Notes: generated by a model from the letters alone, not told the origin. DNA of 64,000 nt from Clostridia bacterium (GCA_017399035.1 JAFQEM010000018.1:18389-82388); one strand, 5' to 3'. Positions 5,472 through 52,425 are shown, counted from the stretch's first letter. Numbers and translations: made by a program.

Positions 5472-5504
5472 ACTTTCATCATATGCAACAAACAATCTGA
5501 AATA

Positions 5505-5538
5505 TAACAAAAACCGCGCTTAAAACCATAAGCGCGGT
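5505..5538 (-). terminator. Rho-independent terminator ending the SipW operon
   Basis: Minus strand: accgcgctta-tggttt-taagcgcggt (10-bp stem, 5513-5538) followed by ttttgtt. Confidence 0.8.
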
Positions 5539-6549: not shown

Positions 6550-6580
6550 AGCGTACCTCCTTTTTAATTTTTTTAGTTTT

Positions 6581-9055: not shown

Positions 9056-9125
9056 TCCGAGGCGACAAAAACACTTTTGCCGCCTCTAAAATTATTGATT
9101 TCTTCAGTATTTTACTATGTAAAGA

Positions 9126-9761: not shown

Positions 9762-9814
9762 AGTCTTTATCTCCTATAATGTTTTTTGCGCGCACGCGCT
9801 TAATTTGTAATGCA

Positions 9815-9844
9815 ATTATACCCCCCCACCGCACCAAAAGTCAA
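9815..9844 (-). promoter_or_regulatory. Sigma-A type promoter of the SipW operon
   Basis: Minus strand: TTGACT (9844-9839), 18-nt G-rich spacer, TATAAT (9820-9815), about 55 nt upstream of the ATG at 9761. Confidence 0.6.
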
Positions 9845-9961
9845 GTGTTTTACATAAAAATTTTTACGCTTTATATAGCGTTATTATTTTTTTAACAAAA
9901 AACATAAAACGGTGTGGTTTTTTCATTACAAATTTGCTTTGACAAATTTTAATTTTTTAAA

Positions 9962-10008
9962 ATAGAACCGCCACGAGTGCGCTAAAAGGCGTGCCGTGGC
10001 GGTTCTAT
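9962..10008 (-). terminator. Terminator hairpin after sigG
   Basis: 14-bp stem atagaaccgccacg / cgtggcggttctat, 18 nt after the sigG stop. It is followed on the minus strand by ttt then an A/T-rich run. Confidence 0.6.
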
Positions 10009-10025
10009 GCTGTTTTGTTATGACA

Positions 10026-10799
10026 TTATACCCTTATTCTTTCTTTTATGTCTTTTAGGGCGTTTTTTTCAAGCCGTGAAACTTGCGCTTGCGATATACC
10101 CACTTCTTTAGATATTTCAGTTTGAGTTTTGCCCTCAAAATATCTTAAATAAATTATTTTCTTTTCTCTGCCCTCAAGCGTGCCAAGTGCAGTTGTTAGA
10201 GCAACTTTATCAGTCCAGTTTTCGTCGGTGTTTTTTTCGTCGCCTATTTGGTCAACCAACAGTAGTTCGTCGCCAGACTTGTTATAAACGGGGTCGTAAA
10301 GCGAAACGGTGTCTGATATAGCGTCTAGCGCGTAAACCACTTCGGACAGGGCAACGTTCATCTCTTTTGCAATTTTTTCAAGGCTTACCTCTTCATCTCG
10401 CTTTTCAAGTTCACCACGTGTTTTTAACGCTAAATAAGCCGTGTCGCGTATACTTCTTGCAACGCGCATACTGTTACCCTCACGCAGTAACCTTTTTACG
10501 TCGCCTATTATCATAGGCACGGCGTAGGTGGAAAATTTTACGCCAAAAGACAAATCAAAATTATCTATTGCCTTTATAAGTCCTATGCACCCTGCTTGAA
10601 AAACGTCGTCTGAACAAAAGTTTTTCAAATGAAAACGCTTTATAATAGATAACACTAAACGCATATTACCAACTATAAATTCTTCTCTTGCACGCTCGTC
10701 GCCTTGTTTTATGCGTTTTAACAAGGCGGTTGCCTCTTCATCACTTAAGTGTGGCAAAGTTGCGGTGTTTATTCCGCAAATAACAACTTTACTGTTCAT
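10026..10799 (-). CDS. sigG: Forespore RNA polymerase sigma factor SigG
   Basis: 257 aa. KVVICGINTATLPHLSDEE...GNMRLVLSIIKRF...QAGCIGLIKAIDNFDLSFGVKFSTYAVPMIIGDVKRLLRE is near-collinear with B. subtilis SigG (KVEICGVDTSKLPVL...FSTYAVPMIIGEIRRYLRD). Confidence 0.9.
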   Translation of the reverse strand: MNSKVVICGINTATLPHLSDEEATALLKRIKQGDERAREEFIVGNMRLVLSIIKRFHLKNFCSDDVFQAGCIGLIKAIDNFDLSFGVKFSTYAVPMIIGDVKRLLREGNSMRVARSIRDTAYLALKTRGELEKRDEEVSLEKIAKEMNVALSEVVYALDAISDTVSLYDPVYNKSGDELLLVDQIGDEKNTDENWTDKVALTTALGTLEGREKKIIYLRYFEGKTQTEISKEVGISQAQVSRLEKNALKDIKERIRV

Positions 10800-10837
10800 A
10801 TTTCCTCCTTTATGTAAAACGACTCAAGGGGGTTTTT

Positions 10838-10867
10838 TAAGTATGCTCGTTATTTTTGTTTTTATAC
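10838..10867 (-). promoter_or_regulatory. Candidate forespore (sigma-F/sigma-G type) promoter of sigG
   Basis: Minus strand: GTATA (10867-10863), 17 nt, CATACTTA (10845-10838). This resembles GnATA-N17/18-CATnnTA. It lies between the upstream terminator and the sigG RBS aaggagg. Confidence 0.35.
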
Positions 10868-10884
10868 CCTTGCGTTTAACTATA

Positions 10885-10920
10885 TAATAAAAATTTAAGG
10901 CGGTAGAAAATTCTACCGCC
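10885..10920 (-). terminator. Rho-independent terminator ending the AAA+/TGase/MBG operon
   Basis: Minus strand: ggcggtag-aatttt-ctaccgcc (10899-10920) followed by ttaaattttta. Confidence 0.75.
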
Positions 10921-10950
10921 CGTACGACTTTAATTTTTATTAAGTTAAAT

Positions 10951-13900
10951 TTAGTTATAAGTGAGCGTTCCGTTAAATACTTTGATGTTGTAATTTAATA
11001 AGTCTTCGTACAATACGTCTTCGTTTTGCGTATAAACTCTTTCGCCGTCAACTTCTACGTACCAAATGTTACTGGTTGAAGTGCCTTTTTCTAAACAACT
11101 TCCGCTAACGTAAACTTTAACTTCGTCCCCCGCCATAAATTTACCGTAAGTTATGGTATAGGCGTCTTGCAGTTGTTCACTATCTATAGGCTCGTCACTA
11201 GTTATGCTATTTGCAGTTAGATAAACTTCTTGCTTTCTTATTACGTATTGAGCAGAAGTTACTTCAAATACGTAATTTCCAGCCTCTTCATAACCAACTT
11301 CTTGACCGTTATAACGCATTCTCATTGAAGATAAATCTACACCAACTTCATATTCGCCTGCGTTTACAATTTGGTCAACGTATTGCATAGAGTTTTTATC
11401 GTATGCAGTATACGTGTCAAATCCTAAAATTTCATCACCCTCGGCAAGTTGACCGTAACCCTCTCTTATTTTTTCCACAACGAACTTTCTTCCGGTAAAT
11501 GCGTGCGACTGACCATTGTAATAAGCCTCGTAACCAAAAATTACTATTGATATTTTTGTCAAATCTATAGAAAGCGTACCATAATCGTAAGCAATTTCAT
11601 AATAGTTGCCAGTTTTATCATTGCCAAATGCGTCTATTATTTTATAAGATATTTTATTATCAACCCTGCCGTCTTCTCTTGTTAAAGCAAAGGGTAAATT
11701 GCTTGGGTCTTGTGGAACTATTTTGTGCCCATCTACAAGCGCATTACCATAATCTTCATTAACTAATATTTTATCGTTTGTCAACGGCGTGCCGTCATAC
11801 TCTTTATTCATATTGTCTGAATAAAGATATATGCTTAATTGATTTATAGTTAAATCGCCCAAAGCGGTGGTGTTTATTAAAAAGTTTCTACTTACGTTTT
11901 CGTTTTGTCCGTCGGTTATTTGAACACCACTACACTCTACAACGCCCAAATAAGTTCCCGCATCTATACATTGCTCTTTCAACGTGCAATCAACTTTCAT
12001 ATTATAAAGTGGCATAAGTTCAAAAAATTCGCCATCAGCAGTATAATAACTTAAAACTGCGTTTTCTAAACTTGTGGTATCATCATAATCTTTTTCAATA
12101 TCCACTTTAAGCGACATTTCGCAAGGGGTTATTGTAAGCGTTCCGTTATTTAGCGTTTTTATAACGTAATTTTGCGTTTGGTCTTTGCCGTCGGCACTTA
12201 AGTTGGCAACACGCCATCGATACTCGCCGTTTCTTATAGTTATTGCAGTATTTGTGTCATCAACGTTTATTGCGGAACTAAATAAATCCGCATAAAAAAC
12301 GTGTTCATCTAAAAGATTTTCTACGGTTATAGTTTGCGTTTGGTTAAGAGCGAACGGTTGTGAATAATTGTTTTCATATTCAACGGAATATGCCGAATAT
12401 TGCCCACCATCGTAAACCTTGGTAAAATCTGAAATAGTTACCGTAAGTTCTCTTTTGGTAATTTCAAGTTGCACGTTATCAGTTAAAACTATATAGTTGG
12501 AAGAACAGTCGTTTCCATCTTCGTCAAAGATATAGTATTTTATCTTTTCGCCTTTGTATTCACCCACATTTACGCCGTCCGTCCAAACTTTTATTGTATG
12601 ATTATCAACCACTTCAAGAGAACTTTCCGCATAATCGATAGAAGTTGCATAAAACTCTTGTCCGTTATACTGTTTATTTTCGTCAATAACTAAACTAATT
12701 TCTCTCAACCCAACGGTTATTTCACCATATTCGTAAATAATTTTGTAGTTATCTTTTACCGTTTGATTTACGCTATTTAACACGTCTTTCACGGTAACCT
12801 CATTAGGTCCAGAACCTTGCAAAAGTTCCGTCCAGTCGTCGTTAAGTTCTATCTTATGACCGTCAACAAGCCCTTCTTGGTCTATAACACCGTCTTTAAA
12901 CTTAAAGGTATGAACTTGCCCGTCGTAAATGATACTTGCTTTTGGCGTTTTTATCGTAAGCGGTCTTTTTTCAATAGTTAAATCGCCAGCATTGATAGTA
13001 ATGTTATAATTATCCTTGTTTCCACTTTCAATATCCCACTCAAGAATTTTTACGCTTTCTAAATATGTGCCTGCATTTATGCAACCTGTGGGCAGTTCGC
13101 ATTTTGCAACTCGGATTTTTTGATTTCCGTAAAGATTTTCGGTTAAAACGCCCTCGTCTTCTTCCTTTAATACGGATACAGAAACATCCTTAGCGTGGAT
13201 TTCCGCGCTATCATCATAAGTTTTAACTGCGTTTGCAAAAACAAAAACCTGCCTTGGTGTTACTGTAAGCGTGCCTGCCGTTACTGTGTAGTTAAAGTTT
13301 TCTAACGCGCTCTCATTATTTTGGTTTTTAATATCGTTTATGATTATGGTGTTTTCTGCACTGCCAACGTCGGTTATACTACCCGTAACGCTCACGTCTA
13401 AAGTATGGTCGCTAGGCATATTGTAGTAAACGTATTCGTTGAGAGTAAATGGTTCTGCATTATAGATTGCGCTACCGTCATAAGACTCTATAGTTATATC
13501 ACGCTTGTTTATGATTAAAGCAGAGTCCTCTTCAATGATAACTTGATAGTTTGTGGTAACTTCTTTTGTAGGCTCAAAAATATGTAAGTCAACACTTTCT
13601 TTACCGTAAGTTTTTGCCTTTACGTCATTTGAACAAACAGTCATATAATGGCTGTCAACTAATTCCCCACTAATAAATTCAAAATTATCTTCCATTAAAA
13701 GGGCATAGCCGTCATAATTTTTTTCATTATTAAACTTTAGTCTAATAGGGCGGGGCGTTACGGTCAACTTACAATCTTCAAAATTATCCGTTATCTTGTA
13801 ATTGTTTGTAACGACAAGGTCGCCACGAGAAGAACTTTTTATGCTATAACTTGGCACGTTATCAACCGAATTAACGTCGGTTATAGAACTAGAAAATTGA

Positions 13901-15492
13901 ATATCTAATCTATCGCCAAACCCAAGTTCGCTATAATAAACCTTGTTATCCGCCACAAGTTGCTCTAAAGTTTCGCCAACGAACGTGAGTTCAGTGCCGT
14001 CGTAAACCTTTTCGTCATCAAAAACGGTAATTGTGAGTGGTTTAGGCGTTATTTTTAAGTTGCCAAAATTTTCAGTTATAAGGTAGTTTGATATAACGCT
14101 ATTTCCGTATGCATTTGTAATATAGTAAATAGGCGTGTTTTGAATTTCGTCAACGTCTATTATTGACTCGTCAAACACAATTTCTATATTATCGTCGTCG
14201 GCAAGTTGCCCAAGTTCAATTTTTCCTTGCGATATAAGTTCTTCTTTCGATAAACCAACAAACGTGAGTTCAGTGCCGTCATAAACTTTTTCTTGGTCTT
14301 TGACGGTAATTGCGAACGGTTTAGGCGTTATTTTCAAGTTGCCAAAATCTTCGGTTAAAACGTAATTTGATATAACACTTTCGCCTTGAGAATTTAAAAT
14401 ATCGTAGTCAGGCGTGTTTTGCTCGGTAACCGCATTTATTATAGATTTTGTAAACTCAACGTCTATCCTGTCGCCCTCTGCAACGTTGCCAAGCATAAGT
14501 TTTCCGCTTTCAATTAGCGTGTCAATATTTTCGCCTACAAAAGTGAGCGGTGTTCCATCATACTCTTTACTTACTTCGTTTACCTTTATTATAAACGGGC
14601 GTGGCAATATTTCTAACGTACCAAACTGTTTGTTTATATTATAGTTCGCAGAAACGTCTTGTCCGTCTGCATTTTTAATAGCGAAAACAGGGGTATTTTC
14701 CACAAAACCAACGTTTGTTATTGACTTATTAAACTCAATTTCTATTTTATCGTCAAAAGCAAGTTCACCAAGCGCAATCTTGCCCTGTTCGATAAGTTGT
14801 TCTTTTGAAAGATTTGTAAAAGTTAATTCTTTTCCGTCGTAAGTTTTATTTTCGTCAGCGACCTTAAAAGTAAATCTTTTTTGCGCAACGTATACGTTTT
14901 TTTCTGACGCGTTAATATTATAACAATGCGTTACGTCGTTACCTAATTTGTCTTGTATAACAATGCTATCTTTTAGCGCAGATATTTTTTGAGTTCCAAC
15001 CGTCTTTTGTAAATTATAATCTATTTGACTAATTTTGTCGCCGTTTTTAAGGTCAGCAACGTAAGTGGGCATATCGCCGTAAGTAAGGTTATTTTCTTTA
15101 ATTTGAACGTCAAGACTTGCAGGTTCTATCACAAGCGGAACGGCACGACTATAATTTTTTATACCGAACGTACGCTTTGAATATGCGCGCACACTATAGT
15201 CCCCCGTCTGCGTAGGCAGACCGTCAATCCACTCGTTACCGTCTGCTAACTTATGTTCATAACCCACTTTGCTAAACAACGCCCCTGCGCTACACTCAAC
15301 GCGTTGACCATAAACTATTTGCGGTGTAGAAAGGTTTATATCGTCAGTAAAAATTCCACGCACGGATAAAAATGCAACGTACAACGCCAAAATAGCCCCG
15401 ACAACTGAAAGTATCAGAACTTTATGCTTTTTTATCTTATCGACTATTTTAGCGATTTTTTCAATTTTTGTTTGATAATTTTTGTATAACAT
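10951..15492 (-). CDS. Giant signal-anchored surface protein made of ~13 YDG/MBG-like beta repeats
   Basis: 1513 aa. One N-terminal TM (VLILSVVGAILALYVAFLSV). Repeated units have the form K-x-YDG-x-x-L-T ... G-D/H ... NY-x-I ... G-x-L-x-I-x-P-R/K-P. No LPXTG motif, no catalytic motif. Confidence 0.75.
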   Translation of the reverse strand: MLYKNYQTKIEKIAKIVDKIKKHKVLILSVVGAILALYVAFLSVRGIFTDDINLSTPQIVYGQRVECSAGALFSKVGYEHKLADGNEWIDGLPTQTGDYSVRAYSKRTFGIKNYSRAVPLVIEPASLDVQIKENNLTYGDMPTYVADLKNGDKISQIDYNLQKTVGTQKISALKDSIVIQDKLGNDVTHCYNINASEKNVYVAQKRFTFKVADENKTYDGKELTFTNLSKEQLIEQGKIALGELAFDDKIEIEFNKSITNVGFVENTPVFAIKNADGQDVSANYNINKQFGTLEILPRPFIIKVNEVSKEYDGTPLTFVGENIDTLIESGKLMLGNVAEGDRIDVEFTKSIINAVTEQNTPDYDILNSQGESVISNYVLTEDFGNLKITPKPFAITVKDQEKVYDGTELTFVGLSKEELISQGKIELGQLADDDNIEIVFDESIIDVDEIQNTPIYYITNAYGNSVISNYLITENFGNLKITPKPLTITVFDDEKVYDGTELTFVGETLEQLVADNKVYYSELGFGDRLDIQFSSSITDVNSVDNVPSYSIKSSSRGDLVVTNNYKITDNFEDCKLTVTPRPIRLKFNNEKNYDGYALLMEDNFEFISGELVDSHYMTVCSNDVKAKTYGKESVDLHIFEPTKEVTTNYQVIIEEDSALIINKRDITIESYDGSAIYNAEPFTLNEYVYYNMPSDHTLDVSVTGSITDVGSAENTIIINDIKNQNNESALENFNYTVTAGTLTVTPRQVFVFANAVKTYDDSAEIHAKDVSVSVLKEEDEGVLTENLYGNQKIRVAKCELPTGCINAGTYLESVKILEWDIESGNKDNYNITINAGDLTIEKRPLTIKTPKASIIYDGQVHTFKFKDGVIDQEGLVDGHKIELNDDWTELLQGSGPNEVTVKDVLNSVNQTVKDNYKIIYEYGEITVGLREISLVIDENKQYNGQEFYATSIDYAESSLEVVDNHTIKVWTDGVNVGEYKGEKIKYYIFDEDGNDCSSNYIVLTDNVQLEITKRELTVTISDFTKVYDGGQYSAYSVEYENNYSQPFALNQTQTITVENLLDEHVFYADLFSSAINVDDTNTAITIRNGEYRWRVANLSADGKDQTQNYVIKTLNNGTLTITPCEMSLKVDIEKDYDDTTSLENAVLSYYTADGEFFELMPLYNMKVDCTLKEQCIDAGTYLGVVECSGVQITDGQNENVSRNFLINTTALGDLTINQLSIYLYSDNMNKEYDGTPLTNDKILVNEDYGNALVDGHKIVPQDPSNLPFALTREDGRVDNKISYKIIDAFGNDKTGNYYEIAYDYGTLSIDLTKISIVIFGYEAYYNGQSHAFTGRKFVVEKIREGYGQLAEGDEILGFDTYTAYDKNSMQYVDQIVNAGEYEVGVDLSSMRMRYNGQEVGYEEAGNYVFEVTSAQYVIRKQEVYLTANSITSDEPIDSEQLQDAYTITYGKFMAGDEVKVYVSGSCLEKGTSTSNIWYVEVDGERVYTQNEDVLYEDLLNYNIKVFNGTLTYN
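13755..14880 (-). repeat. Four highly similar ~279-nt (93-aa) tandem coding repeats inside the 1513-aa gene
   Basis: For example, 13977-14100 and 14257-14380 are near-identical (caacRaacgtgagttcagtgccgtcRtaaac...ggtttaggcgttatttt). The protein units begin FTFKV / FIIKV / FAITV / LTITV. Confidence 0.8.
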
Positions 15493-15514
15493 TTTTTACC
15501 CGTTTATTTAACGT

Positions 15515-18500
15515 TTACACATCAACCGTGATTGTGCCAAATGCAATTTCTATGTGGTAGTTTTTAGTAACGTCTTTACCACTTGCGTCAAGTATCTTTA
15601 ACGTATTGCGCTCAAAACTATTTGGGCATTCACCGTAATAAGATATTTTACCAGTAAATACAAGTTCGTTTGATATTTTATGCCCAGCAACAAGCCCGCT
15701 AACGACTAAATCTTCCATTTCACCATTAAACGTTGTTATTCCATCGTAGGAATACTTTACGTCTTTAGTTTTAACAGTTATTTCCTTTTGAGTAATTTTC
15801 AAATTTCCTACAACGGTAACTTTATAATAATCTTTAGTAACGTCGTTACCACTTGTATCTACAACTTTTACGCTTACGCTCTTCTTTGTGCCTACGTCGG
15901 TTATACTATTGAATTGAACGTCAATGGTATGTCCGTAAAGCGTTGTTCCCACCGGTGTATATCCCTTATCATAAACTAACGGTGTTCCGTCGTAAACTTT
16001 AGACATATTTTCAGCCGTTACCTTTATAGATTTATAAAGGAACAATTCTCCATTATAACCTTTTTTCGTTTCGTACTTTATTTTATAATTTTGAGTTACC
16101 GTATCGCCGTTGCTATCTACAATGCCAAACTCGCACTCGTTTTTATGTCTTCCGCACGTTGAAACACTAAATGATTTTGCTAATTCTACCTTGTGTCCAT
16201 CTAACAAGTCGTTTTCATCTTGTAATTCAAAATCATAACTATATAATTTTGCAGATGCAACAAATTCCTTCTCTGCGTCTTTGCGATATATAACGATATC
16301 TCTAGGTTCTACTTTGACGGTACCATATTCGTATTTAATTTCGTAATACTTGTCAGTTACGTCTATTCCGTTTTCAAAAATTATAATCTTAAATTCATTT
16401 TCAGTAGTTTCACCAACGTTAGTAGGATTGAATTCGCCTTCAAATTCACCTTTTTGCACCTTATGTCCGTCAAGAACTTTTCCATAAGGCATATCGTCTT
16501 GGTCTAAACCGGTGTCAAACCAGTACACTTGCCAAGATTCTTTATTGTCTTGGCGGATTGCATAATTAGCGTCGTATTGATGATTATAGTTATCAGTATT
16601 AACGCATAACTTTATTCTAACTATTTCAAACGCGCCTTCTTTTGCGTCAATCTCATAGTTGTTAGTTACGTCTTCTCTATAATTAGTACAGTCAACTATT
16701 CTATACGTTTGAATATTTTTGTGTACACCGATATCTTTTGCCTCAGTCGTGGTCAACAACTCAACGCTGTGGTCGTTAAGTAAACCACGCGATTCTTCAT
16801 AATTTATACCTTCAAAGTCGTAATTTTCACTCTTTTGCAATTCACCAGTATAAGGCAACTTTATTTCTTTTTTGTAATACGGGCTGTCAACATTTCCGCT
16901 TGCCCAAATGGTTATGGGGCGCTTGCTTATTTGCAGAGTGCCATATTCAACTCGCTTTATTTCATATTCTTCTGTAATATCGTTTCCAAACTCGTCGCGT
17001 ATAACGTATTCAAATCCGTTATTTTGATAGGGCGCGCAAGCGTTGACGGGCATTTGAATATCTTGCCCACCAACTACTTCAATATAATGACCACTCTTAA
17101 GATAGCCGTCGTATTCCCATTTAATAGCCTCTGAATAATCAATAGGTATTCCGTCATAAACCTTAGACACGCTAGGCGTTTTAAGAACAAGTTCGTTCTT
17201 TCTAACTTCGTCAAACGCACCACCAGTAACTTCAACTTCTACCCAGCCCATACCGTCAACGTAAATTTCCACCCACGCGTGAGCGTATTTACCCGTAACA
17301 ACGGTAACGTTATAAGGTTCTGCCGTAACTTTATATCCACAAGTATATCTTGCAGGTATTCCGTAAGCGCGGAATATCATTGTTGCGGCGGCTGCAAAGT
17401 GTTGGCATATACCCTCTTTACCCTCTTTCAAGAAGTATAAAACCATATCTTCGCCCGCAGGGAACGTATCAAACTCAAGGTTATAACCTGCGCAATTTTG
17501 AACGTAATCACGAATTTGTCTAGCAATAGACAGTTTATCCCCCCAAAAATATCCAGTCAAATCTAACAACTCGTTTTTCAACCACTCGTCAATATTTAAA
17601 TAGTTATTATAAACGAAATTGCGGTATCTGCCCTCTTGCGAAGTTAAATCAGATGGCACTAAATAAGTTTGCCCTTCTGCCAAATAGTCGTAATTACTAG
17701 CCTTTGTCATATATATAGGCAAAGATTGAGAAAAACGAATGTCCCCCGTTTCTTTTATTCCGCCAGTTATTGAATAATAAGGCAAATAATATGCGTTTGA
17801 ACCGTCAAGATTTTCTATAACTATTTGGTCCATAACCCTGCCCGCGTTATTCAATGCCGTTCCAGTAAAATACAACGGACTAACTACCGACTGGTCATAC
17901 TCTTGAGCATAATCAAAACCACTGCCGTTATAATCACCAAAATTTTCGTAACGAAGATAATATTCGCTAGCAACGTTTGAATAAGAAATTAAACTTAAAA
18001 CTTCAACGTCTGCATTGTCGCCAAAACCGTTGCCCTGCTGTTGAAGATTATTATCAAACCGTTGATTACCTGCGCCACCTAAACCGCCTTGCCCAACACC
18101 TACGCTTGCGCCGTTGGGGTCGTCGTCGTTTTCATTGAGAATACCGTCGCCGTCTATATCGTTATCTATATCGTTAGGCATACCATCGCCGTCTACGTCG
18201 TCGTCTTGACCGTTGGGCAAACCGTCGCCGTCTACGTCTGCGTCTTGACCGTTAGGTGTGCCGTTTCCGTTTACGTCGTTATCTTGATAATTAGGTATGC
18301 CGTCGCCGTCGGTGTCTAAATTTTGATTTGCCATCATTGACGCCATAACTTTTGCGGCTATCGCTTGCATCAACTGCTCTCTTTGTTCCTCTGTCAGGTT
18401 TGAATTTTCTAACTGTTTGAGCAAATCTTCTATATTCATATTTTCAAGGTCGAGTGAAGAAAAATCGTAATTGCCAAATCTATCAATTAAATCTTCAATT

Positions 18501-18898
18501 TTTTCTTTGTCAAGTTTATCCCAGTCAATCCAACCCTCTTCGTGCACAATCAATAGCCCTGGCGTTTCAATTATTCTGTATTCGTTAGTAACCGAATTAC
18601 CTGCTTGGTCTACGATAGTGTAGTGGAAATAGTTAAAAGACGCGCCTTTTTCCGTCTGTGAACCATAAGTTTCAACTATAAGCGAATGTCCGTCTTTGAG
18701 TTTGCCGTGTCTAATACCAAAACTCTCGCTAGTTAGCGGTGTTCCATCGTAAGCCTTTTCAGCAATACCCGAATAAATTACTAGTCTTCTAGTGTCAACG
18801 TAACCGGTAGAAATAACGGCAAAACACGCGCAAATCGAAACGAAAAGCGCGACTAATACACCTATTAAAAAATAATATAAACGTATTTTATTTTTCAT
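15515..18898 (-). CDS. Signal-anchored transglutaminase-like protein with thrombospondin type-3 Ca-binding repeats and YDG/MBG-like repeats
   Basis: 1127 aa. N-terminal TM, then one MBG-like unit. D-x-D-x-DG repeats at aa ~195-262 (DTDGDGIPNYQDNDVNGNG...DIDGDGILNENDDD). TGase core: GICQHF (Cys498), YAHAWVE (His540), GWVEVEVTG. Then ~6 further MBG-like units. Confidence 0.8.
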   Translation of the reverse strand: MKNKIRLYYFLIGVLVALFVSICACFAVISTGYVDTRRLVIYSGIAEKAYDGTPLTSESFGIRHGKLKDGHSLIVETYGSQTEKGASFNYFHYTIVDQAGNSVTNEYRIIETPGLLIVHEEGWIDWDKLDKEKIEDLIDRFGNYDFSSLDLENMNIEDLLKQLENSNLTEEQREQLMQAIAAKVMASMMANQNLDTDGDGIPNYQDNDVNGNGTPNGQDADVDGDGLPNGQDDDVDGDGMPNDIDNDIDGDGILNENDDDPNGASVGVGQGGLGGAGNQRFDNNLQQQGNGFGDNADVEVLSLISYSNVASEYYLRYENFGDYNGSGFDYAQEYDQSVVSPLYFTGTALNNAGRVMDQIVIENLDGSNAYYLPYYSITGGIKETGDIRFSQSLPIYMTKASNYDYLAEGQTYLVPSDLTSQEGRYRNFVYNNYLNIDEWLKNELLDLTGYFWGDKLSIARQIRDYVQNCAGYNLEFDTFPAGEDMVLYFLKEGKEGICQHFAAAATMIFRAYGIPARYTCGYKVTAEPYNVTVVTGKYAHAWVEIYVDGMGWVEVEVTGGAFDEVRKNELVLKTPSVSKVYDGIPIDYSEAIKWEYDGYLKSGHYIEVVGGQDIQMPVNACAPYQNNGFEYVIRDEFGNDITEEYEIKRVEYGTLQISKRPITIWASGNVDSPYYKKEIKLPYTGELQKSENYDFEGINYEESRGLLNDHSVELLTTTEAKDIGVHKNIQTYRIVDCTNYREDVTNNYEIDAKEGAFEIVRIKLCVNTDNYNHQYDANYAIRQDNKESWQVYWFDTGLDQDDMPYGKVLDGHKVQKGEFEGEFNPTNVGETTENEFKIIIFENGIDVTDKYYEIKYEYGTVKVEPRDIVIYRKDAEKEFVASAKLYSYDFELQDENDLLDGHKVELAKSFSVSTCGRHKNECEFGIVDSNGDTVTQNYKIKYETKKGYNGELFLYKSIKVTAENMSKVYDGTPLVYDKGYTPVGTTLYGHTIDVQFNSITDVGTKKSVSVKVVDTSGNDVTKDYYKVTVVGNLKITQKEITVKTKDVKYSYDGITTFNGEMEDLVVSGLVAGHKISNELVFTGKISYYGECPNSFERNTLKILDASGKDVTKNYHIEIAFGTITVDV

Positions 18899-18917
18899 CT
18901 TTCTACCTTTTACATTG

Positions 18918-19286
18918 TTAATCGTAAACGACCAACTGCCCGTAAGTTTTGATAATTTGATAACTTGAAGTTACGTTTTTGCCTTCTGCATCAGTTATAA
19001 CTACTCTAAAAACGTTATCGGATGTTCCCTCTTGAGTTCTAGTGCCAACAAACATAACCTTTATGGTATGACCTTCTTTTAAGTTACCCTTGGTTACTTC
19101 ATAACTTTCACAAGTGAGAGGCGTTCCGTCGTAAAGTTTGCTTGCGCTTGCTGACTTTATTTCAATAATTTCTCTAGGCATAGATACAACGCCCGTCAAA
19201 ACAAGCGTAAAACAAATGATTATTGCTAGGACCATAGTGATTACGAATCCTGACATAACATAAAACCATTTTTCTTTTTTCTTCAT
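18918..19286 (-). CDS. Small signal-anchored protein with a single YDG/MBG-like domain
   Basis: 122 aa. TM (FVITMVLAIIICFTLVLTGVV) followed by ASKLYDGTPLTCESYEVTKGNLKEGHTIKV...SSYQIIKTYGQLVVYD. It is paralogous to aa 1-120 of the 1127-aa protein. Confidence 0.75.
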   Translation of the reverse strand: MKKKEKWFYVMSGFVITMVLAIIICFTLVLTGVVSMPREIIEIKSASASKLYDGTPLTCESYEVTKGNLKEGHTIKVMFVGTRTQEGTSDNVFRVVITDAEGKNVTSSYQIIKTYGQLVVYD

Positions 19287-19305
19287 ATCTTTTGCCTTCT
19301 TAACC

Positions 19306-20703
19306 TTAAATAGTTCTTTCTAAATGTCTTAAATAATCTTTGGTTAACGTCATCTTTTCTTGTCCGAAAGTCTCTTCTATGTGCGCACATAATCCGTCTA
19401 TCGCATTTCTTACGTATACGGGGTTTTGCATCTCTAACTTTCTCATTATCTTCTTTGCTATGATGTCGTCTACCGCCTCTTCTTCCGTTCCACCGCACGC
19501 TATGTACGCTGATACGTATTCTTTTAACTGTTTCATTATACGGTTACCAAACGTTATATGAAAGTTCTCTATCATATATCTGTCTAACTCTTTTATCTGC
19601 CTTAACTTCCTGCCCGTTATTCCGTATTCTCTCTTCGCTTTTGCTATTAGTTTCTTAAACCTATCGTACGTTATTCTTACGCCTTCCGTATCTTCTGCGT
19701 AAAATACGTGCGTCTTTTTATCTAGATTCATTATCATTGCTCTATCGTATACCTTATCCGATATCGCAAACGTTGAGTCGTCGTTATTTGCAGTCCCTAT
19801 AAACCACATATTTTCGGGTAGTTTTAGTTGTCCTTTCTTTAATAACTTCGGGTCGTTATCCCACTTGTCCGTTACTACGTCTATATATCTTCCCTCTGGG
19901 TTTGGTAACTCTAATAACGACAAGAATTCTGCAAAGTAATATTCTACCCTTGCTATATTCATTTCGTCTAGTACCGTTATGTATATCTCTTTACTATAGT
20001 TTGCCTCGTACATCTTTTGCAACAAGGTTGTTTCGTTAAACTTTTTTGTAAATTCGTTATAATACCCCACTAGGTCGGTTCTCTCTTTCCACATAGGTTG
20101 TATAGGTACTATTACTGAATGATTACTTAAAAATTCACCAAACGCATACGCTAACGAAGTTTTACCCGTACCACTCATACCTTGCATTATGATTATATGT
20201 GATACTGCTAAACTTGCTACGAATCTTCTTATCTCTCTTATATCGTAATATAACTTCAATCTGCTTGCGGCAAAGTTTCTAAACCTTTCGCAAAACTCTT
20301 TCATTGTTATTTCTTCATCAAATCCGCCCTGCGGTTTATTGCGCATTACTCTATCCGTTTCGGTTAACATATAGAAACGTGAGGGGTGCTCTTCACTATC
20401 TTTTTCTTTTTCCTCTGCGCTAGCACCCACCGCCGTCGTGCTTGCGATTGAAGAAGTGGCGGTTACAGGTTTACCGTTGTTTACCTTTTCAACGTAATCA
20501 CGAAGTTTATCTAACTCTTCGGTTTCTTCCGCACGCCTACCGTGGTCAAAAACCACCGCAACCACTAGGATAACTACGGCAAGAAGAAGAACTACAACGT
20601 AAATTAAAATTGCTATTTGGCTAGAGAGCGCAGTCCAAATTGTATCCGCAACGGGATTGTCGCTTACAGCCATTAAATTATTTAACGCATCAAACTTATA
20701 CAT
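19306..20703 (-). CDS. Membrane-anchored McrB-like (AAA_5 type) AAA+ NTPase
   Basis: 465 aa. TM at aa ~29-52. Walker A QGMSGTGKTS, Walker B ITVLDEMNIARVEYYFAEFLSLLE, then WFIGTANNDDSTFAISDKVYDRAMI. This is the McrB/dynein-related AAA pattern (DEINRAN...FGEL..LLE; IGTMNtaD...RRF). Confidence 0.75.
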   Translation of the reverse strand: MYKFDALNNLMAVSDNPVADTIWTALSSQIAILIYVVVLLLAVVILVVAVVFDHGRRAEETEELDKLRDYVEKVNNGKPVTATSSIASTTAVGASAEEKEKDSEEHPSRFYMLTETDRVMRNKPQGGFDEEITMKEFCERFRNFAASRLKLYYDIREIRRFVASLAVSHIIIMQGMSGTGKTSLAYAFGEFLSNHSVIVPIQPMWKERTDLVGYYNEFTKKFNETTLLQKMYEANYSKEIYITVLDEMNIARVEYYFAEFLSLLELPNPEGRYIDVVTDKWDNDPKLLKKGQLKLPENMWFIGTANNDDSTFAISDKVYDRAMIMNLDKKTHVFYAEDTEGVRITYDRFKKLIAKAKREYGITGRKLRQIKELDRYMIENFHITFGNRIMKQLKEYVSAYIACGGTEEEAVDDIIAKKIMRKLEMQNPVYVRNAIDGLCAHIEETFGQEKMTLTKDYLRHLERTI

Positions 20704-20722
20704 TTAATCTCTCCACCCGTAA

Positions 20723-23110
20723 TTATTTTTTCAATCCGTAAACGGAGATTGCTTGTTTTGTTAAAGGAATATTTTCAAACCCGAAAAGTTCGTCTAGTTT
20801 GAAAGAAAAATCTTGCTCGGGAACTGCCAAAATTTTATCTTTTTCGGTAGCAACAAGCGGAATTATTTTTTCACAAAGTATAGCGTCTAGAGCCTCTGCC
20901 TTGTTCATACCGCACGCGATAAACGCCGCAATATTTTCTTCCATTTGTCTTATAAATCTGTTGTCAAAACGGATATCGGTGTTCTCTTCAAGATATTCTT
21001 CTAAACGGTCTATCTTTCTCCAGTAATCTTCAGTTAGATAACAGGTTTCTTGAGCCTCTTCAAGCGATTCTTTAATCATACCGAAAGAAGTTCCGCTCTT
21101 TATAAACAACTGACTATCTGCGTCGTTTCTCATTGTGAGTGGCAAGTCTACGATAGAAGAATATTTAATCCACTCGGGTTCTAGCGCCGTAGCCTTATCT
21201 TCCCCTATAAATACTACCATTCTTAAGTTGTCTGAAATTTTAACGCTACCACGTCCGTAATATTCAGTTTCTGGTAAACCTTTTATCTTGCCTACGAACA
21301 CTTTTTCTTCGTTACCAGCGATTGCGGTAATTACGTCTGCATCAAAGTCGCCTATTGCATCAACGGCGGTGTTATCAACGAACACCAAACCGAAAGTGTT
21401 GTAAAGATAGTTTGCAACGAATAACCCACCCGCAACACCGTATTTAAGTTCTCTCTTCTTCTCTTCGTCCGTTTTGGGTTTATAAACGTAAACGGGTTTT
21501 TCAACGGGCTTAACCACAGGTTTAACTTCGGCAGGCGTTAATTCGTCTTGCGTAGACGCAACCTCTTCCGCATTTTCTTGTTCAGAACTGCTTTGCGAAT
21601 TTATACCTGCAAGAAGGTCTGCAATAGACGTTCCACCCGAACTTTGCTCTTCGGGTTTTTCTTCGGTTGAAAGGTCGCCAACAAGAGCGGATAGAGAATT
21701 GCTTTCGGGTTTTTGTTCTTGCGCGCTCTCAATAGACGCAGCAAGGTTAGTTACAACCGATTTATATTCTTCTTCAGGATTTTCTCTTCTCTCATAGAAC
21801 AAGTCTTCACCAAAGAAGGTAGATATGGTGTCTGCAAATTCCCTTAAAACGTCAGAATTTGCGCCACTTTTTATAAACGTAACTTTTGACGAAAGTATTG
21901 CCGCAAGAACTTTTTGCATTTCGCCTTCGTCAGTTATAATGCCACGGTCGTTAACTGCAATACACAAGTTTTTGCACATCTTGTCAATAGAAGTTTTATC
22001 TTTAAAGTCAAGATTTTCGTTACGAATTTCAAGTTCGGTTTCACTCCAAGCCCTAGGCTCTTCTTTAGCCGTTTCGGTCAACGGTTTTGAAACGTCATTA
22101 GTTGCAGGTTGTTCGTCTTTCTTGAAGAAACCCTTAAATTTAGGAACTTCTTCAACGTACATTTTACTGCTTACTAATTTGTTGTAAACTTTTGCGCCAA
22201 CTATATCTAAAACGCCTATCAAAACTAGCAAAATAATTGACCAAACTTCTTCATAACCGTTTGCGATAATCATATTGATTATGAGTGAAGAGCAAGCGAT
22301 TAAATATATAACGTGTTGCCAAATAGGTAAGGGACTATATTTTGAATGTTTGCGACCTCTTGTGGTCATATAAGAAAAAGCGTTGTTCAAGGGCATACAA
22401 ATTTTAACGGTTGATAGCACCAAAATGAACAAGTAAATTACGCTTGCTGTGTTATAAACACCCGCAACCCAGTCTTGCCTAGCAGTGTCGAAAATAATAT
22501 GATGTTGAGAACCATCAAACCAACTTTCCATCATATAACGAGTGCCAACGGTATCTCTTCTATGCAAAACGAAAAAGAGCATAAATATTTTTGAACCCCA
22601 AGACAAAAGGTAATATAAAACTTTACCTTTACTTGGGCGCAAGTCGTAATTACATAGTTGAGCGATAAGCGCAAATATAAGACCTATCGCATAAAGAATA
22701 AGCACTATAAACCAGTATTCAATGCCGTAACTGGTGCTGAGCGCTTCCATATTGTTGGTAAGGAAAAACCCTACAAATACGCCAAGCGTCAAATTTATAG
22801 TGTTTGCAAACAATTTATAAAAACTATATCCCACACCAGCGCGGTATTTTTTTAGGTTATTAACCATAACCACAGCGACTACCAACAAAATAATTGAGTG
22901 GCATAGCATAGATATAGTTGCAATTAGGTTACCATATTCGCCCCTACCAAACCTTTTTAAGCCCGATTCAAAAAGCGAACCGTCTTTACCAGTCGGTAAA
23001 AACGGAATAACCATAATTATGAATAATGCGATAAACCCGTAAATGGCGGTAGCGTATAAACTTCTAGATTTTTTGATTGAACTTACGCCACCTTTTGTAG
23101 TCGTTGACAT
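20723..23110 (-). CDS. Polytopic membrane protein (~8 TM) fused to a degenerate McrB-like AAA+ domain
   Basis: 795 aa. aa 1-320 are hydrophobic helices, followed by an acidic S/E/P-rich linker. The C-terminal ~330 aa are collinear with the 465-aa ATPase but have lost the P-loop (IKSGANSDV vs QGMSGTGKTS) and Walker B (VFVDN vs VLDEMN). The shared tail is FxNRxxxQxxExxxAxIACG. RBS aaaaggag. Confidence 0.75.
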   Translation of the reverse strand: MSTTTKGGVSSIKKSRSLYATAIYGFIALFIIMVIPFLPTGKDGSLFESGLKRFGRGEYGNLIATISMLCHSIILLVVAVVMVNNLKKYRAGVGYSFYKLFANTINLTLGVFVGFFLTNNMEALSTSYGIEYWFIVLILYAIGLIFALIAQLCNYDLRPSKGKVLYYLLSWGSKIFMLFFVLHRRDTVGTRYMMESWFDGSQHHIIFDTARQDWVAGVYNTASVIYLFILVLSTVKICMPLNNAFSYMTTRGRKHSKYSPLPIWQHVIYLIACSSLIINMIIANGYEEVWSIILLVLIGVLDIVGAKVYNKLVSSKMYVEEVPKFKGFFKKDEQPATNDVSKPLTETAKEEPRAWSETELEIRNENLDFKDKTSIDKMCKNLCIAVNDRGIITDEGEMQKVLAAILSSKVTFIKSGANSDVLREFADTISTFFGEDLFYERRENPEEEYKSVVTNLAASIESAQEQKPESNSLSALVGDLSTEEKPEEQSSGGTSIADLLAGINSQSSSEQENAEEVASTQDELTPAEVKPVVKPVEKPVYVYKPKTDEEKKRELKYGVAGGLFVANYLYNTFGLVFVDNTAVDAIGDFDADVITAIAGNEEKVFVGKIKGLPETEYYGRGSVKISDNLRMVVFIGEDKATALEPEWIKYSSIVDLPLTMRNDADSQLFIKSGTSFGMIKESLEEAQETCYLTEDYWRKIDRLEEYLEENTDIRFDNRFIRQMEENIAAFIACGMNKAEALDAILCEKIIPLVATEKDKILAVPEQDFSFKLDELFGFENIPLTKQAISVYGLKK

Positions 23111-23175
23111 TTGAGTTTCTCCTTTTCCGCTATGAAAGCAGATACCTTTGCGTATTTATTTGCTGAAAAACCGTT

Positions 23176-23246
23176 ATAAAAAAACAGAAACGCCGTTTGC
23201 AACGGGCATAACGGCGAATGGAAAATATCCGAATAAAAATCGGATA
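23176..23246 (-). promoter_or_regulatory. Two tandem terminator-like hairpins in the 5' leader of the five-gene operon
   Basis: Minus strand: tatccga-tttttat-tcggata + ttttcc (23226-23246), then cgccgtt-atgcccgttgca-aacggcg + tttctgttttttt (23176-23216). Both lie between the promoter and the ATG at 23110. Confidence 0.55.
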
Positions 23247-23323
23247 AAAATTAAACTTTTTCCTTTGCGCACACTCACGATTCTTCAAGTGTATTAGTTA
23301 TTATAAATAACTATCCGTGTGCT

Positions 23324-23352
23324 ATTATATATCTGTAAAGTAAAAATGTCAA
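23324..23352 (-). promoter_or_regulatory. Consensus sigma-A promoter of the AAA+/TGase/MBG operon
   Basis: Minus strand: TTGACA (23352-23347), exactly 17 nt, TATAAT (23329-23324). Predicted TSS near 23317, giving a leader of about 205 nt. Confidence 0.7.
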
Positions 23353-23403
23353 GTGTTTTAACACGCTAACGCCATATAGCCTTATTAGAGTTTCAAAAAC
23401 CTT

Positions 23404-23442
23404 AAAAATTGACAAAACCGCAACCTTTTTAAGATTGCGGTT
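23404..23442 (-). terminator. Terminator hairpin after sigE
   Basis: Minus strand: aaccgcaa-tcttaaaaagg-ttgcggtt (23416-23442), starting 12 nt after the sigE stop and followed by ttgtcaattttt. Confidence 0.6.
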
Positions 23443-23453
23443 GAAAATATATT

Positions 23454-24161
23454 TTAAATCATTTTTGCAAACTCTTTTTTCAATCTTACTATAATTTTCT
23501 TTTCCAAACGAGATATGTAACTTTGTGAAATTCCTAGCATATCGGCAACTTCTCTTTGCGTTTTTTCTTCTGAACCTTTAAGCCCGTATCTCAATTCCAT
23601 AATCTCACGCTCTCTATCGTTAAGTTTAGTGAGCGCAACCCCCAAAAGTTCACTCTCTACGCCGTTTTCTATTTTTTTATAAACCACGTCGCCGTCAGTA
23701 CCCATAACGTCTGAAAGCATAAGTTCGTTGCCTTCCCAATCGGTGTTGAGCGGTTCGTCAAAAGACACTTCACTTTTAATTTTAACCGTGCGCCGTAAAT
23801 GCATCAAAATTTCGTTCTCTATACAGCGCGACGCATAGGTTGCAAGTTTTATATTTTTATCTGCATTGAAAGAATTTACCGCCTTAATTAGCCCTATAGT
23901 ACCCACCGAAACCAAGTCGTCTAAGTCTACGCCAGTGTTTTCAAAACGCCTTGCGATATAAACTACCAAACGCAAATTATGTTCTATAAGTTGGTCGCGT
24001 ATTTGCTTTTCGCCCTCACCCAACTTTTTTAGCATATCCGCCTCTTCTTCCCCACTATAAGGCAAGGGCAAAATTTCACCGCCACCTATAAATCTTAAAA
24101 GATTTTGACTTAAAGAAAATTTTTCAAGAAACTTTTTCAACTTGCTTAATACGTTCATCAC
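23454..24161 (-). CDS. sigE: Mother-cell RNA polymerase sigma factor SigE (pro-sigma-E)
   Basis: 235 aa. Pro-sequence, then [16 protein letters not shown]...[64 protein letters not shown], near-collinear with B. subtilis SigE. It sits immediately downstream of spoIIGA. Confidence 0.92.
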
Positions 24162-24948
24162 TGTTCTCCTTATAAAACGCTGGGTGTAAAATTAAATCGT
24201 AGCCGTCGCCTACGGTATCGGCAACGCACAGCGTTACTTTATTAAATATATTCGCTTGTTCTTCAATATATATCTTTATTTGGTCAAGTTCTACTGCTAT
24301 ATTTTCAACACTTCCCGACACGGTTTTTACCATAATTTTTTTAAGTTTTATTTTATGCAAGTTTTCACCCACAAAATCAACAAAAAACTTTTTTTCGCAC
24401 AAAACCACAGGGTTTTCGCCGTCGTAAAGCCCGTTTCCCGTATCCAAAAAACCGCGAACGGTTGCAGTTTTTTTGCGCAAGGTTATATCCACCTTAAAAA
24501 TAAACGCCTCTATATCTTTACGCCTATAGATATACTTAATTGTAGAATTTACACACGCTATTAAAACCCAAACAGGCAACACCATAATTGCAACTGAAAA
24601 TTGCGCCGAATAATCAAGACCAAATATATTATAAATGCCAACTATTGCTCCACCCACGGCAAAGGTTAAAAGGAAAAATATTAAGGTGTTTAGTAGGTAC
24701 GCGCGTTTTGACGGATAAACGTTAGCAACAAGCGTCAACAAAAAGCCCGACAATATTCTAACCATAAGCGAAATAAACTTAACGTGAGCAATAAGCGGAT
24801 AAACAAGCGCAATGACCGCACCTAAAAAAGAGCAAAATAAAAGCCTACCCTTACTATATCCGTTTCCGGTAAGCGCAAAGGTGGCTTTAAGTAATAAATA
24901 ATCGATTATAACGTTGTCAATTAAAACGTATTCAATATAAACGGTCAT
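24124..24948 (-). CDS. spoIIGA: Sigma-E processing peptidase SpoIIGA
   Basis: From M11 of the track ORF: [21 protein letters not shown], five TM helices, then [11 protein letters not shown] (aspartic protease DTGN motif). Adjacent to sigE. Confidence 0.88.
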
Positions 24949-25089
24949 CTTTGCCCCCGCGCCTTTAGATTGTAGCATAAGGGTAAAAGCCGTTTAAGTA
25001 AGTTTTTTATGTATTTTAATTTATTTTGTAGAAAAGATAAACCGCCCGAAAAATTTCAAGCGGTTTGTTCTTAAATTTGTATTTTTAAT

Positions 25090-52278: not shown

Positions 52279-52425
52279 CTATTCTTTTTCAGAATAATCA
52301 CCGCAACAAGTGCAAGATTCACCGCAACCGCAAGTTACTTTAATGCTGTCTAGTTGACAATTACAACCGTCTGCGTTATGTTTGCACTTTTCTACGTCGC
52401 ATTTGATACAATAATTTTTCTTCAT
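52279..52425 (-). CDS. DUF1540-type small Cys-rich protein (48 aa; absent from the ORF track)
   Basis: Minus-strand translation: MKKNYCIKCDVEKCKHNADGCNCQLDSIKVTCGCGESCTCCGDYSEKE with RBS aaggagc. The C.V..C.H......C....I.V pattern is typical of DUF1540 in spore formers. Confidence 0.75.
   Translation of the reverse strand: MKKNYCIKCDVEKCKHNADGCNCQLDSIKVTCGCGESCTCCGDYSEKE

Follow-up and report, generated by a model that had tools for sequence, protein, structure and literature searches.

In a 64,000-nt stretch of DNA from a Clostridia bacterium (GCA_017399035.1 JAFQEM010000018.1:18389-82388; hereafter the window), the sporulation genes sigE and sigG are separated by 12,654 nt, counted from the sigE stop to the sigG start. 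The gene order in Bacillus subtilis is spoIIGA-sigE-sigG(-ylmA-ylmB-ylmC). We consider it probable that an accessory gene cassette was inserted into a short sigE-sigG spacer, and that sigG has stayed on its ancestral promoter with little regulatory consequence. An initial annotation of this DNA had described a split of about 12.6 kb and had read it as an insertion into an ancestrally contiguous locus; both descriptions were borne out, by the recurrence of both junctions in independent assemblies and by relatives that have the same flanks and a contiguous locus. The split is real and fairly ordinary, and its importance is modest: accessory genes occupy a permissive spacer beside a gene with its own promoter. 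The host is an uncultured, Christensenellales-like spore-former of the ruminant gut.

The window reads lepA, hemW, a gene for a 640-aa protein (g640), spoIIGA, sigE, the cassette, sigG, a SipW operon, ylmC, an EF-G-like gene, pfkB and brkB, and every gene in the region 10026-24978 lies on the minus strand (Table 1). The gap between the sigma genes begins with a terminator, a sigma-A promoter and a leader of about 210 nt, followed by five same-strand open reading frames (ORFs) for membrane-anchored proteins of 795, 465, 122, 1127 and 1513 aa and a second terminator; terminators and promoters throughout are predictions from sequence. The three sporulation genes were identified by family models and by position. 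SpoIIGA scores 94 bits on the NCBIfam model spore_II_GA, under its cut-off; its gene has a second in-frame ATG at 24948, an alternative start at which the initial annotation had ended the region, and its 3' end overlaps sigE (24124-24158). An alternative GTG start of sigE at 24161 would give 235 aa (ORF 23454-24161); the ATG at 24158 is the start in public gene calls, and an exact look-up of SigE found no match from the GTG and matches from the ATG one codon on. The sigG product scores 353.9 bits on the SigG model, below the curated cut-off of 372, and 333 bits on TIGR02850 (cut-off 457), and SigF models reach 255.9-270 bits, about 100 bits under the SigG model. Position supports its orthology: L011, L104-L106 and numerous further loci have orthologues 64-86% identical directly between sigE and the PRC-barrel gene.

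Table 1. Features of the window, in order of position (terminators, promoters and leaders are predicted).
Feature	Position	Strand	Basis or remark
ylmC/ymxH-like PRC-barrel gene, ancestral downstream neighbour of sigG	5085-5510	minus	Pfam PRC, 35.9 bits
Second lineage-specific insertion, between sigG and ylmC	5563-9844	minus	three genes
328-aa secreted protein	5563-6549	minus	signal-peptide-like N-terminus
824-aa SipW-like signal-peptidase fusion	6581-9055	minus	NF046067, 36.3 bits (cut-off 190)
211-aa secreted protein	9126-9761	minus	signal-peptide-like N-terminus
Strong predicted terminator after sigG	10008-9962	minus	-29.1 kcal/mol, z -6.84
sigG, 257 aa	10026-10799	minus	best NCBIfam model SigG (PRK08215), 353.9 bits
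sigG leader	10832-10804	minus	CCCCCTT (10832-10826) able to pair with Shine-Dalgarno AAGGAGG (10810-10804)
sigG forespore-type (sigma-F/sigma-G-like) promoter, GTATA-N17-CATACTTA	10867-10838	minus	read directly, at the sequence level
Predicted terminator closing the cassette, after the 1513-aa gene	10921-10898	minus	10-bp stem, 6 GC pairs
1513-aa membrane-anchored MBG/YDG-repeat protein	10951-15492	minus	Pfam YDG, 41 bits; N-terminal transmembrane segment
1127-aa membrane-anchored protein, transglutaminase-like core at aa 455-556	15515-18898	minus	Pfam Transglut_core, 76.4 bits
122-aa type-II membrane protein, one MBG/YDG-like domain	18918-19286	minus	N-terminal transmembrane segment by hydropathy
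465-aa McrB-like AAA_5 NTPase, N-terminal transmembrane anchor	19306-20703	minus	Pfam AAA_5, 29.5 bits
795-aa polytopic membrane protein	20723-23110	minus	about 8 transmembrane segments by hydropathy; acidic linker
Cassette leader, about 210 nt	23317-23111	minus	whole-leader fold z -2.67
Cassette promoter, sigma-A-type, TTGACA-17-TATAAT	23352-23324	minus	12/12 consensus
Predicted intrinsic terminator just past the sigE stop	23442-23416	minus	12-bp stem, then UUUUGUCAAUUUUU
sigE, 234 aa	23454-24158 (from ATG)	minus	NCBIfam SigE equivalog, 377 bits (cut-off 339)
spoIIGA (pro-sigma-E processing protease), 284 aa	24124-24978	minus	Pfam Peptidase_U4, 116.9 bits
Third lineage-specific insertion, 640-aa predicted lipoprotein (g640)	25090-27012	minus	lipobox-like N-terminus; hemW-like/spoIIGA junction
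spoIIID, 82 aa	31316-31564	minus	Pfam SpoIIID, 110 bits; about 7 kb upstream of spoIIGA
48-aa Cys-rich ORF	52279-52425	minus	Pfam DUF1540, 33 bits

The initial annotation had itself raised the prospect of an assembly chimera. Repeat-rich genes invite this reading, and in fuller forms of the cassette a near-identical tandem repeat of about 1.1 kb does break some assemblies (L096-L098). The outer junctions, however, recur in independent samples and pipelines. We found the exact SigG protein on at least 24 public contigs, and the right junction, from the 1513-aa gene to sigG, on 8 contigs from 8 samples (L001-L007, L010). The exact 234-aa SigE protein is present on 8 public contigs, and the left junction, from sigE to the 795-aa gene, is carried by three contigs (L091-L093) from 3 metagenome samples and at least two assembly pipelines (ENA, Logan). 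Both outer junctions sit together on one 176,683-bp scaffold, and the flanks are collinear with those of relatives. A sigE-cassette-sigG order created by metagenomic misassembly is thus extremely improbable; only an internal McrC-like segment, discussed below, is doubtful, not the split itself.

A scan for SigG in species-representative genomes returned 80 loci, the nearest of them in Christensenellales-like metagenome-assembled genomes from animal guts, and closer relatives (SigG 86% identical) were found through a protein collection. Three of these (L104, L105, L106) share the order lepA, hemW-like, spoIIGA, sigE, sigG, a variable segment, ylmC-like PRC barrel, EF-G-like, pfkB and brkB, with 94-95% identity to the window in LepA, 85-87% in EF-G and 86% in SigG. 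Their sigE-sigG spacer measures 62-65 nt, and in L104 and L106 the sigE stop codon TAA is itself part of the sigG -35 element GTATAA (…ATG GTA TAA AAA…). The window is collinear with this backbone apart from three extra blocks: the 640-aa gene, the 12.65-kb block and the SipW-like operon. Because the nearest relatives are contiguous and have the same flanking order, the state of the window is a derived insertion, in which the inserted block would begin just past the sigE stop and end shortly before the -35 box of sigG.

We next asked how conserved sigE-sigG adjacency is, taking loci with SigG at least 63% identical as Christensenellales-like, a distance of less than 500 nt as adjacent, and sigE as absent when it is not in the available upstream flank. 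Among 33 informative Christensenellales-like loci, 22 are adjacent, 4 are interrupted by 1.3-4.1 kb, 6 have sigE absent from the upstream flank and 1 has it downstream on the opposite strand. The corresponding numbers for 42 informative loci of more distant Clostridia, many of them Lachnospiraceae, are 17, 1, 21 and 3. The premise that adjacency is a firmly conserved feature is therefore not supported, with 11/33 and 25/42 loci non-adjacent and different genes upstream of sigG even in the close relatives L015 and L107. What fills the gap is different in each lineage: a TasA/SipW-like operon with a GDSL-like gene in L012, a dehydrogenase gene on the opposite strand in L015 (LepA 94%), a TasA/SipW-like set in L025 and an alpha-galactosidase-like gene in L042, and L107 (SigG 85%) has a gene for a coiled-coil tail-anchored protein upstream of sigG. 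The initial annotation had held that interruption by unrelated genes in relatives across the order would mean that adjacency is simply not conserved in this lineage; this applies in part, and the contiguous state is nevertheless ancestral and still that of the majority of Christensenellales-like loci. The sigE-sigG spacer is a recurrent site of insertion and rearrangement in Christensenellales-like gut bacteria, and it may be permissive. Other Clostridia, of Lachnospiraceae type and including several Christensenellales-like genomes, have gone further, with sigG alone behind its own promoter and sigE elsewhere (for example L013, L028, L038, L043, L047, L073, L081, L085) or downstream on the opposite strand (L034, L063, L079, L088); in those genomes the linkage is wholly lost or rearranged, whereas the window keeps collinear flanks with a single block between. 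For the annotation of metagenome-assembled genomes the caution is that sigE-sigG adjacency is not a rule.

The forespore-like promoter that had been proposed ahead of sigG, behind a terminator, can be read directly as GTATA (10867-10863), a 17-nt spacer and CATACTTA (10845-10838), and the terminator is predicted at 10921-10898. A search of the window for GTATA-N17/18-CATNNTW gave two matches where 0.78 would be expected. The second (GTATA-N18-CATAATA, 52474-52445) precedes by about 20 nt the 48-aa Cys-rich ORF, which belongs to the sporulation-associated family DUF1540, and may serve as an informal positive control for the forespore pattern. A corresponding motif, G[T/A]ATAAAA-N15-17-(C/A)ATACT, precedes sigG in the adjacent relatives L011 and L104-L106 and equally in the non-adjacent L012, L013, L015, L017, L034 and L038. 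Being common to both kinds of locus, the sigG promoter is ancestral and is no compensation for the split. Downstream of it, the minimum-free-energy fold of the sigG leader pairs an anti-Shine-Dalgarno (anti-SD) tract with the SD sequence, and a putative hairpin of the same architecture and different sequence can cover the SD in L104 (z -4.25), L106, L011 and L013, making five leaders with that of the window. The loop of the putative hairpin holds a TACATA box (10816-10811), which is at least 90% conserved in 30 Christensenellales-like sigG leaders and lies 0-12 nt upstream of the SD. The box was noted in the window and in sigG leaders of L011-L044 and L104-L107. By its layout the window leader would parallel the hairpin over the ribosome-binding site of B. 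subtilis sigG, which has a stability of -6.2 kcal/mol (PMC5942855).

The gap itself carries three to four predicted terminators. The first, which confirms as a prediction the claim that sigE ends at 23454 with a terminator of its own, has a stability of -15.3 kcal/mol (z -4.29; 0/200 shuffles equally stable), and in adjacent-type relatives the 62-65 nt spacer has no room for a counterpart. Behind it lies the cassette promoter, the top match in the 16.7-kb region scanned (8800-25500). The cassette leader holds two further hairpins with U-tails, both weaker (23246-23226, -8.4 kcal/mol; 23215-23192, -13.8 kcal/mol), which make an attenuator possible. Scanned against Rfam at gathering thresholds, the window as a whole yielded a single tRNA, and neither the cassette leader nor the sigG leader matched a riboswitch or leader family; the cassette leader showed no conservation when aligned with the regions upstream of homologous cassettes in L099, L100 and L103. 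The terminator that closes the cassette (-17.5 kcal/mol, z -4.12) has A-rich and U-rich flanks and a flanking inverted repeat (I8).

The initial annotation had concluded that read-through from spoIIG to sigG is blocked. That sigG is bracketed by predicted terminators agrees with this, but no consequence is to be expected: in B. subtilis the read-through transcript is translationally silent and dispensable for sigG expression (PMC5942855), so blocking this route is not expected to matter. Since the promoter is ancestral and the read-through dispensable, a regulatory consequence for sigG is unlikely, and by analogy with B. subtilis we infer that regulation of sigG is essentially the same with the split as without it. 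The forespore promoter would be the sole source of sigG transcripts, as it is the primary one in B. subtilis, and their translation would be damped by the SD-sequestering hairpin. Because a vegetative promoter of consensus type now lies upstream of sigG, it would fall to the terminator at 10921-10898 to insulate the gene during growth, and the flanking terminators together would shield the gene from that promoter. For sporulation biology the split thus has little weight, since with its own conserved promoter and leader sigG can dispense with its linkage to spoIIG.

A reading close in spirit to the initial annotation, in which insulation was the purpose, the insertion and its terminators having been selected to abolish spoIIG-to-sigG read-through and to tighten the delay of sigma-G, is very unlikely. 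It can draw on the lack of room for any terminator in contiguous relatives, set against the several predicted in the window, and on the many layers of negative control over sigG in B. subtilis (PMC5942855). A 30-nt terminator would have been enough, however, and 12.6 kb of unrelated genes are superfluous. A Spo0A-dependent upstream promoter has been replaced by a vegetative one facing sigG, so the risk of untimely transcription goes up, not down. The read-through to be abolished is already silent in B. subtilis, and in relatives the same gap holds assorted unrelated genes in either orientation.

The cassette had been described as five large envelope genes on one strand. Five genes on one strand they are; the 122-aa gene is not large, and only three of the five products are of envelope type, the other two forming an McrB-like NTPase module. 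An N-terminal hydrophobic segment was found by hydropathy in all five. The 795- and 465-aa products are membrane-tethered cytoplasmic NTPase-like proteins, not surface proteins, and the 122-, 1127- and 1513-aa proteins are type-II-anchored. For the 795-aa protein neither Pfam nor PADLOC gave a family; its C-terminal domain and the one in the 465-aa NTPase are homologues (BLASTP, 28% over 138 aa, E 7e-15), and orthologues of the 795-aa protein open the cassette in L099, L100, L103 and probably L108. The 465-aa NTPase matches the PADLOC candidate-defence model PDC-M26A (3.6e-48), and its best relatives in the PDB are AAA+ domains of Escherichia coli McrB (E 5e-4), with its signature motif NNDD aligned ungapped to the E. 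coli NTAD (N-x-x-D). A strong transmembrane segment (aa 30-48) is followed by a short charged helix. We counted at least 8000 homologues in a metagenome protein collection; a literature search on PDC-M26 found nothing.

The three type-II proteins share repeat domains. The 122-aa protein and the N-terminus of the 1127-aa protein are paralogous (40% identity), and the former has orthologues at the same position in L099, L100 and L103. Besides its transglutaminase-like core, which matches a protein-glutamine gamma-glutamyltransferase (PDB 6g49, 8.6e-9), the 1127-aa protein has Asp-rich calcium-binding-like repeats and MBG/YDG-like repeats, and its gene contains 39-nt DNA repeats at 18111-18310. 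It resembles the TgpA-type transglutaminase of Pseudomonas aeruginosa (PDB 6g49) in being membrane-anchored with an extracytoplasmic Transglut_core; unlike TgpA, with which the similarity spans about 80 residues of the catalytic core, it adds the Asp-rich and MBG/YDG repeats and is encoded beside McrB-like NTPases. The 1513-aa protein diverges fastest in the block, with 93% identity between strains (L002, L003, L005-L007) in which flanking genes are 99-100% identical, and about 29% identity to orthologues in other genomes, against 75-85% for the NTPase. This pattern looks typical of diversifying surface proteins.

The contexts of six NTPase homologues define a fuller cassette: polytopic membrane protein, NTPase-1, a DUF2357 coiled-coil McrC-like protein, NTPase-2, in some cases a small MBG protein, a transglutaminase/MBG giant and an MBG giant. 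These cassettes lie by an aro operon (L099/L100), degV (L101), GH3/nth (L102) and typA (L108), with a further one in L103, and never beside sigG in the contexts examined; the flanks covered in L099-L103 and L108 show no signal peptidase. In L099 (1-7000) the full cassette follows the aro operon, and in L106 (10250-15270) an aro operon is found about 5 kb downstream of sigG. The window cassette, which would be a reduced copy of this widespread gut-Clostridia module, has neither the McrC-like gene nor a second NTPase gene. Sister strains encode an McrC-like protein, as do all six of the other contexts, with lengths of 554-722 aa (L099/L100, L101, L102, L103, L108). DUF2357 scores 25-27 bits (cut-off 23.3) in the L096 and L099 proteins; the L102 protein (722 aa) shares 52% identity with that of L096 and the L103 protein (583 aa) 65%, and neither has a recorded DUF2357 match. 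All have a long heptad-rich C-terminus. DUF2357 and the coiled coil are all that was detected in the McrC-like proteins of relatives, with no nuclease, and PADLOC gave no match for them or for the polytopic membrane proteins.

The gene content recalls CoCoPALM, a class of NxD-motif McrB GTPases that have a transmembrane/coiled-coil N-terminus, coiled-coil McrC partners and associated signal-peptidase genes (PMC11090510); the published description with which we compared it is a single paragraph that gives no sequences and no supplementary details (PMC11090510). The cassette resembles this class in part: the McrB-like GTPase of the window has an N-terminal transmembrane segment, its NNDD is compatible with "NxD usually followed by D/E" although it also aligns with the NxxD motif of E. 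coli McrB, the McrC (DUF2357) partner in full cassettes carries a long coiled coil, with no nuclease detected, and the window encodes a SipW-like fusion on the far side of sigG, one gene from the cassette. In contrast to the class, the window has no McrC-like gene, the six other contexts show no visible signal peptidase, and the published description includes neither transglutaminase/MBG-repeat genes nor a tandem duplication of the GTPase. A search of the window GTPase for a DivIC/FtsB Pfam match gave none even at E up to 1. The window cassette is thus no more than a candidate member of CoCoPALM. A canonical McrBC type IV restriction system was considered and rejected, there being no McrC nuclease and a transmembrane anchor in place of the DNA-reader domain.

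With low confidence we suggest that the cassette builds or remodels a cell-surface structure, using an extracellular transglutaminase, adhesin-like repeat proteins and membrane-tethered McrB-like NTPases. A more specific proposal, which is rather unlikely as a whole, is an uncharacterized CoCoPALM-related system in which McrB-like GTPases and the nuclease-less McrC-like protein would drive the assembly or turnover of a transglutaminase-processed MBG surface structure, perhaps with the SipW operon involved, and in which the GTPase repeats would be a switch by which the McrC-like gene is deleted or restored. The cassette is the more interesting object here, as a widespread unstudied operon linking McrB/McrC-like proteins with surface proteins that evolve fast, and it could represent a non-defence use of McrBC machinery.

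The two NTPase genes of full cassettes are near-identical in their 3' halves. In L100 (2360-3718/5397-6809) and L103 (2735-4087/5850-7232) the pair shares 1079-1112 nt at 99.9-100%, and in L102 (10001-11398/13620-15056) the products are 99.5% identical over 387 residues, although this identity is perhaps exaggerated by assembler consensus. NTPase orthologues between genomes differ by 20-40%, unlike these paralogue halves of about 1.1 kb. The pattern suggests concerted evolution or a recombination switch, and a switch at the 3' halves would explain the two strain variants of this species. One variant is the window type, with the 795-aa protein, a single NTPase and the 122-aa gene; the other is seen on sister-strain contigs (L096-L098, 1-3318), which start inside the repeat and encode a 554-aa DUF2357/coiled-coil protein and a 474-aa NTPase. 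The form in the window is exactly the expected product of recombination between the repeats, and the McrC-like gene and second NTPase were most likely lost in this way.

On the origin of the insert, a comparison of GC content and codon usage with the flanks, which the initial annotation had proposed, found the insert to resemble them in both (GC 0.36-0.38, codon usage within the flank range). Tetranucleotide correlation is slightly low (0.935-0.957, against 0.97-0.99 elsewhere), plausibly through the amino-acid bias of the repeat domains. No integrase, transposase or recombinase Pfam domain was found in the insert and no direct or inverted repeat at its boundaries, and the only tRNA in the window is at 60667. 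The host-like composition does not indicate a recent foreign origin, and a mobile element or genomic island was rejected on the lack of mobility genes, boundary repeats, a tRNA target and atypical composition. As the aro operon that the cassette follows in L099 lies so near sigG in L106, a close relative of the window, the cassette may have moved locally rather than arrived from outside. We also compared the left junction with the sigG promoter as a test for a decayed duplicate, which would imply a target duplication: the best ungapped match, at the expected register, was 21/36, equalled by 5/500 shuffles, and one of four control intergenic regions reached 25/36.

Several points weigh against our account of an insertion with little consequence for sigG. 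The promoters, terminators and ribosome-binding-site hairpin on which it draws are predictions. The hairpin in the window leader is weak (-5.2 kcal/mol, z +0.56) and no better than shuffles; RNAalifold found no consensus structure for 30 sigG leaders, because the spacing between anti-SD tract and SD varies, and the folds that back the hairpin are of single sequences. The U-tract of the cassette-end terminator is interrupted, and some sigma-A-driven read-through into sigG during growth is possible. The insertion would be datable only coarsely, as the closest relatives examined stand at about genus or family level (SigG 86%) and closer SigG variants (95-98%) lie on contigs too short to inform. 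Finally, the absence of the McrC-like gene may be an artefact of assembly, with the repeat collapsed, instead of a deletion. The Logan contig L093 crosses the junction unbroken, which argues for a true variant rather than a collapse, an argument that depends on how Logan contigs are built.

The other two extra blocks also flank the sporulation genes. Between sigG and ylmC, the SipW-like operon has a sigma-A-like promoter (9844-9815, 11/12 match). The claim that sigG is followed by a SipW operon stood in so far as a SipW-like domain is present downstream, but the match is weak, at 36 bits, and the likeness is one of domain only; the 824-aa protein also scores 30.8 bits on an archaeal-type signal peptidase I model (cut-off 51.85). 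Four C-terminal repeats of about 130 aa (TFRKGNKTL.KL.I.GKT…EPKYGAKDVS) match PADLOC PDC-S18 (2.8e-22). PDC-S18 is a single-gene defence candidate and an odd fusion partner for a signal peptidase. The block is absent between sigG and ylmC in L106, L107 and L011, and the ylmC-like gene directly follows sigG in L011, L012, L015, L106 and L107. Distantly homologous secreted-protein/SipW-like operons are found between sigE and sigG in L012 (6009-9897) and L025 (1032-3282), where the window has its operon between sigG and ylmC, so that operons of this type recur beside sigG. Compared with B. subtilis tapA-sipW-tasA, the arrangement is alike in placing a SipW-like type I signal peptidase domain between small secreted-protein genes with similar signal peptides. 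It is unlike in that the peptidase domain is fused to about 570 aa with the four PDC-S18-matching repeats and scores 36 bits, against 190; no TasA/camelysin family match was found for the neighbouring genes.

These neighbours raise the question of functional recruitment, in which the cassette and the SipW/TasA-like operon would be sporulation-linked surface genes, serving for instance spore appendages or cross-linked outer layers, whose place beside sigG was selected. In B. subtilis spore coats are cross-linked by Tgl, a transglutaminase from another family, and TasA was discovered as a spore-associated protein; both facts count for recruitment. So do the presence of a SipW/TasA-like operon bordering sigG in three lineages (downstream in the window, in the gap in L012 and L025), the secreted or membrane proteins encoded by all three window-specific insertions, and the reported association of CoCoPALM with signal-peptidase genes (PMC11090510). 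The cassette promoter, however, is a perfect sigma-A consensus with no sporulation-sigma motif, and the six other contexts lie beside housekeeping genes with no sigG or signal peptidase visible. The SipW-like operons of L012 and L025 are 29-41% identical to that of the window and occur without the cassette, and the same gap holds metabolic genes in other relatives. We therefore regard recruitment as unlikely, and return to a permissive spacer as the preferred explanation.

The 640-aa lipoprotein gene, for which no family was matched, has its own terminator (25066-25039) and is absent from the hemW-spoIIGA position in L104-L106, L011 and L012. It leaves about 60-90 nt for a spoIIG promoter, and a search of that space identified none; the Spo0A box TGTCGAA had 3 matches, against 7.7 expected, none of them upstream of spoIIGA.

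Set beside B. subtilis, the locus agrees in its three sporulation genes, their order and their orientation. Downstream it too has a PRC-barrel gene of the ylmC type, and its sigG likewise comes with its own sigma-F/sigma-G-type promoter (-35 GTATA-like, -10 CATA-like) and a putative SD-occluding leader hairpin (PMC5942855). It differs in the distance between sigE and sigG, with predicted terminators and a vegetative promoter between them, in a sigG start of ATG rather than GTG, in the 17-nt promoter spacer, and in its upstream neighbours, lepA and hemW rather than ftsZ. The gene content suggests that the organism keeps its sporulation programme, which the spoIIID gene upstream of spoIIGA supports.

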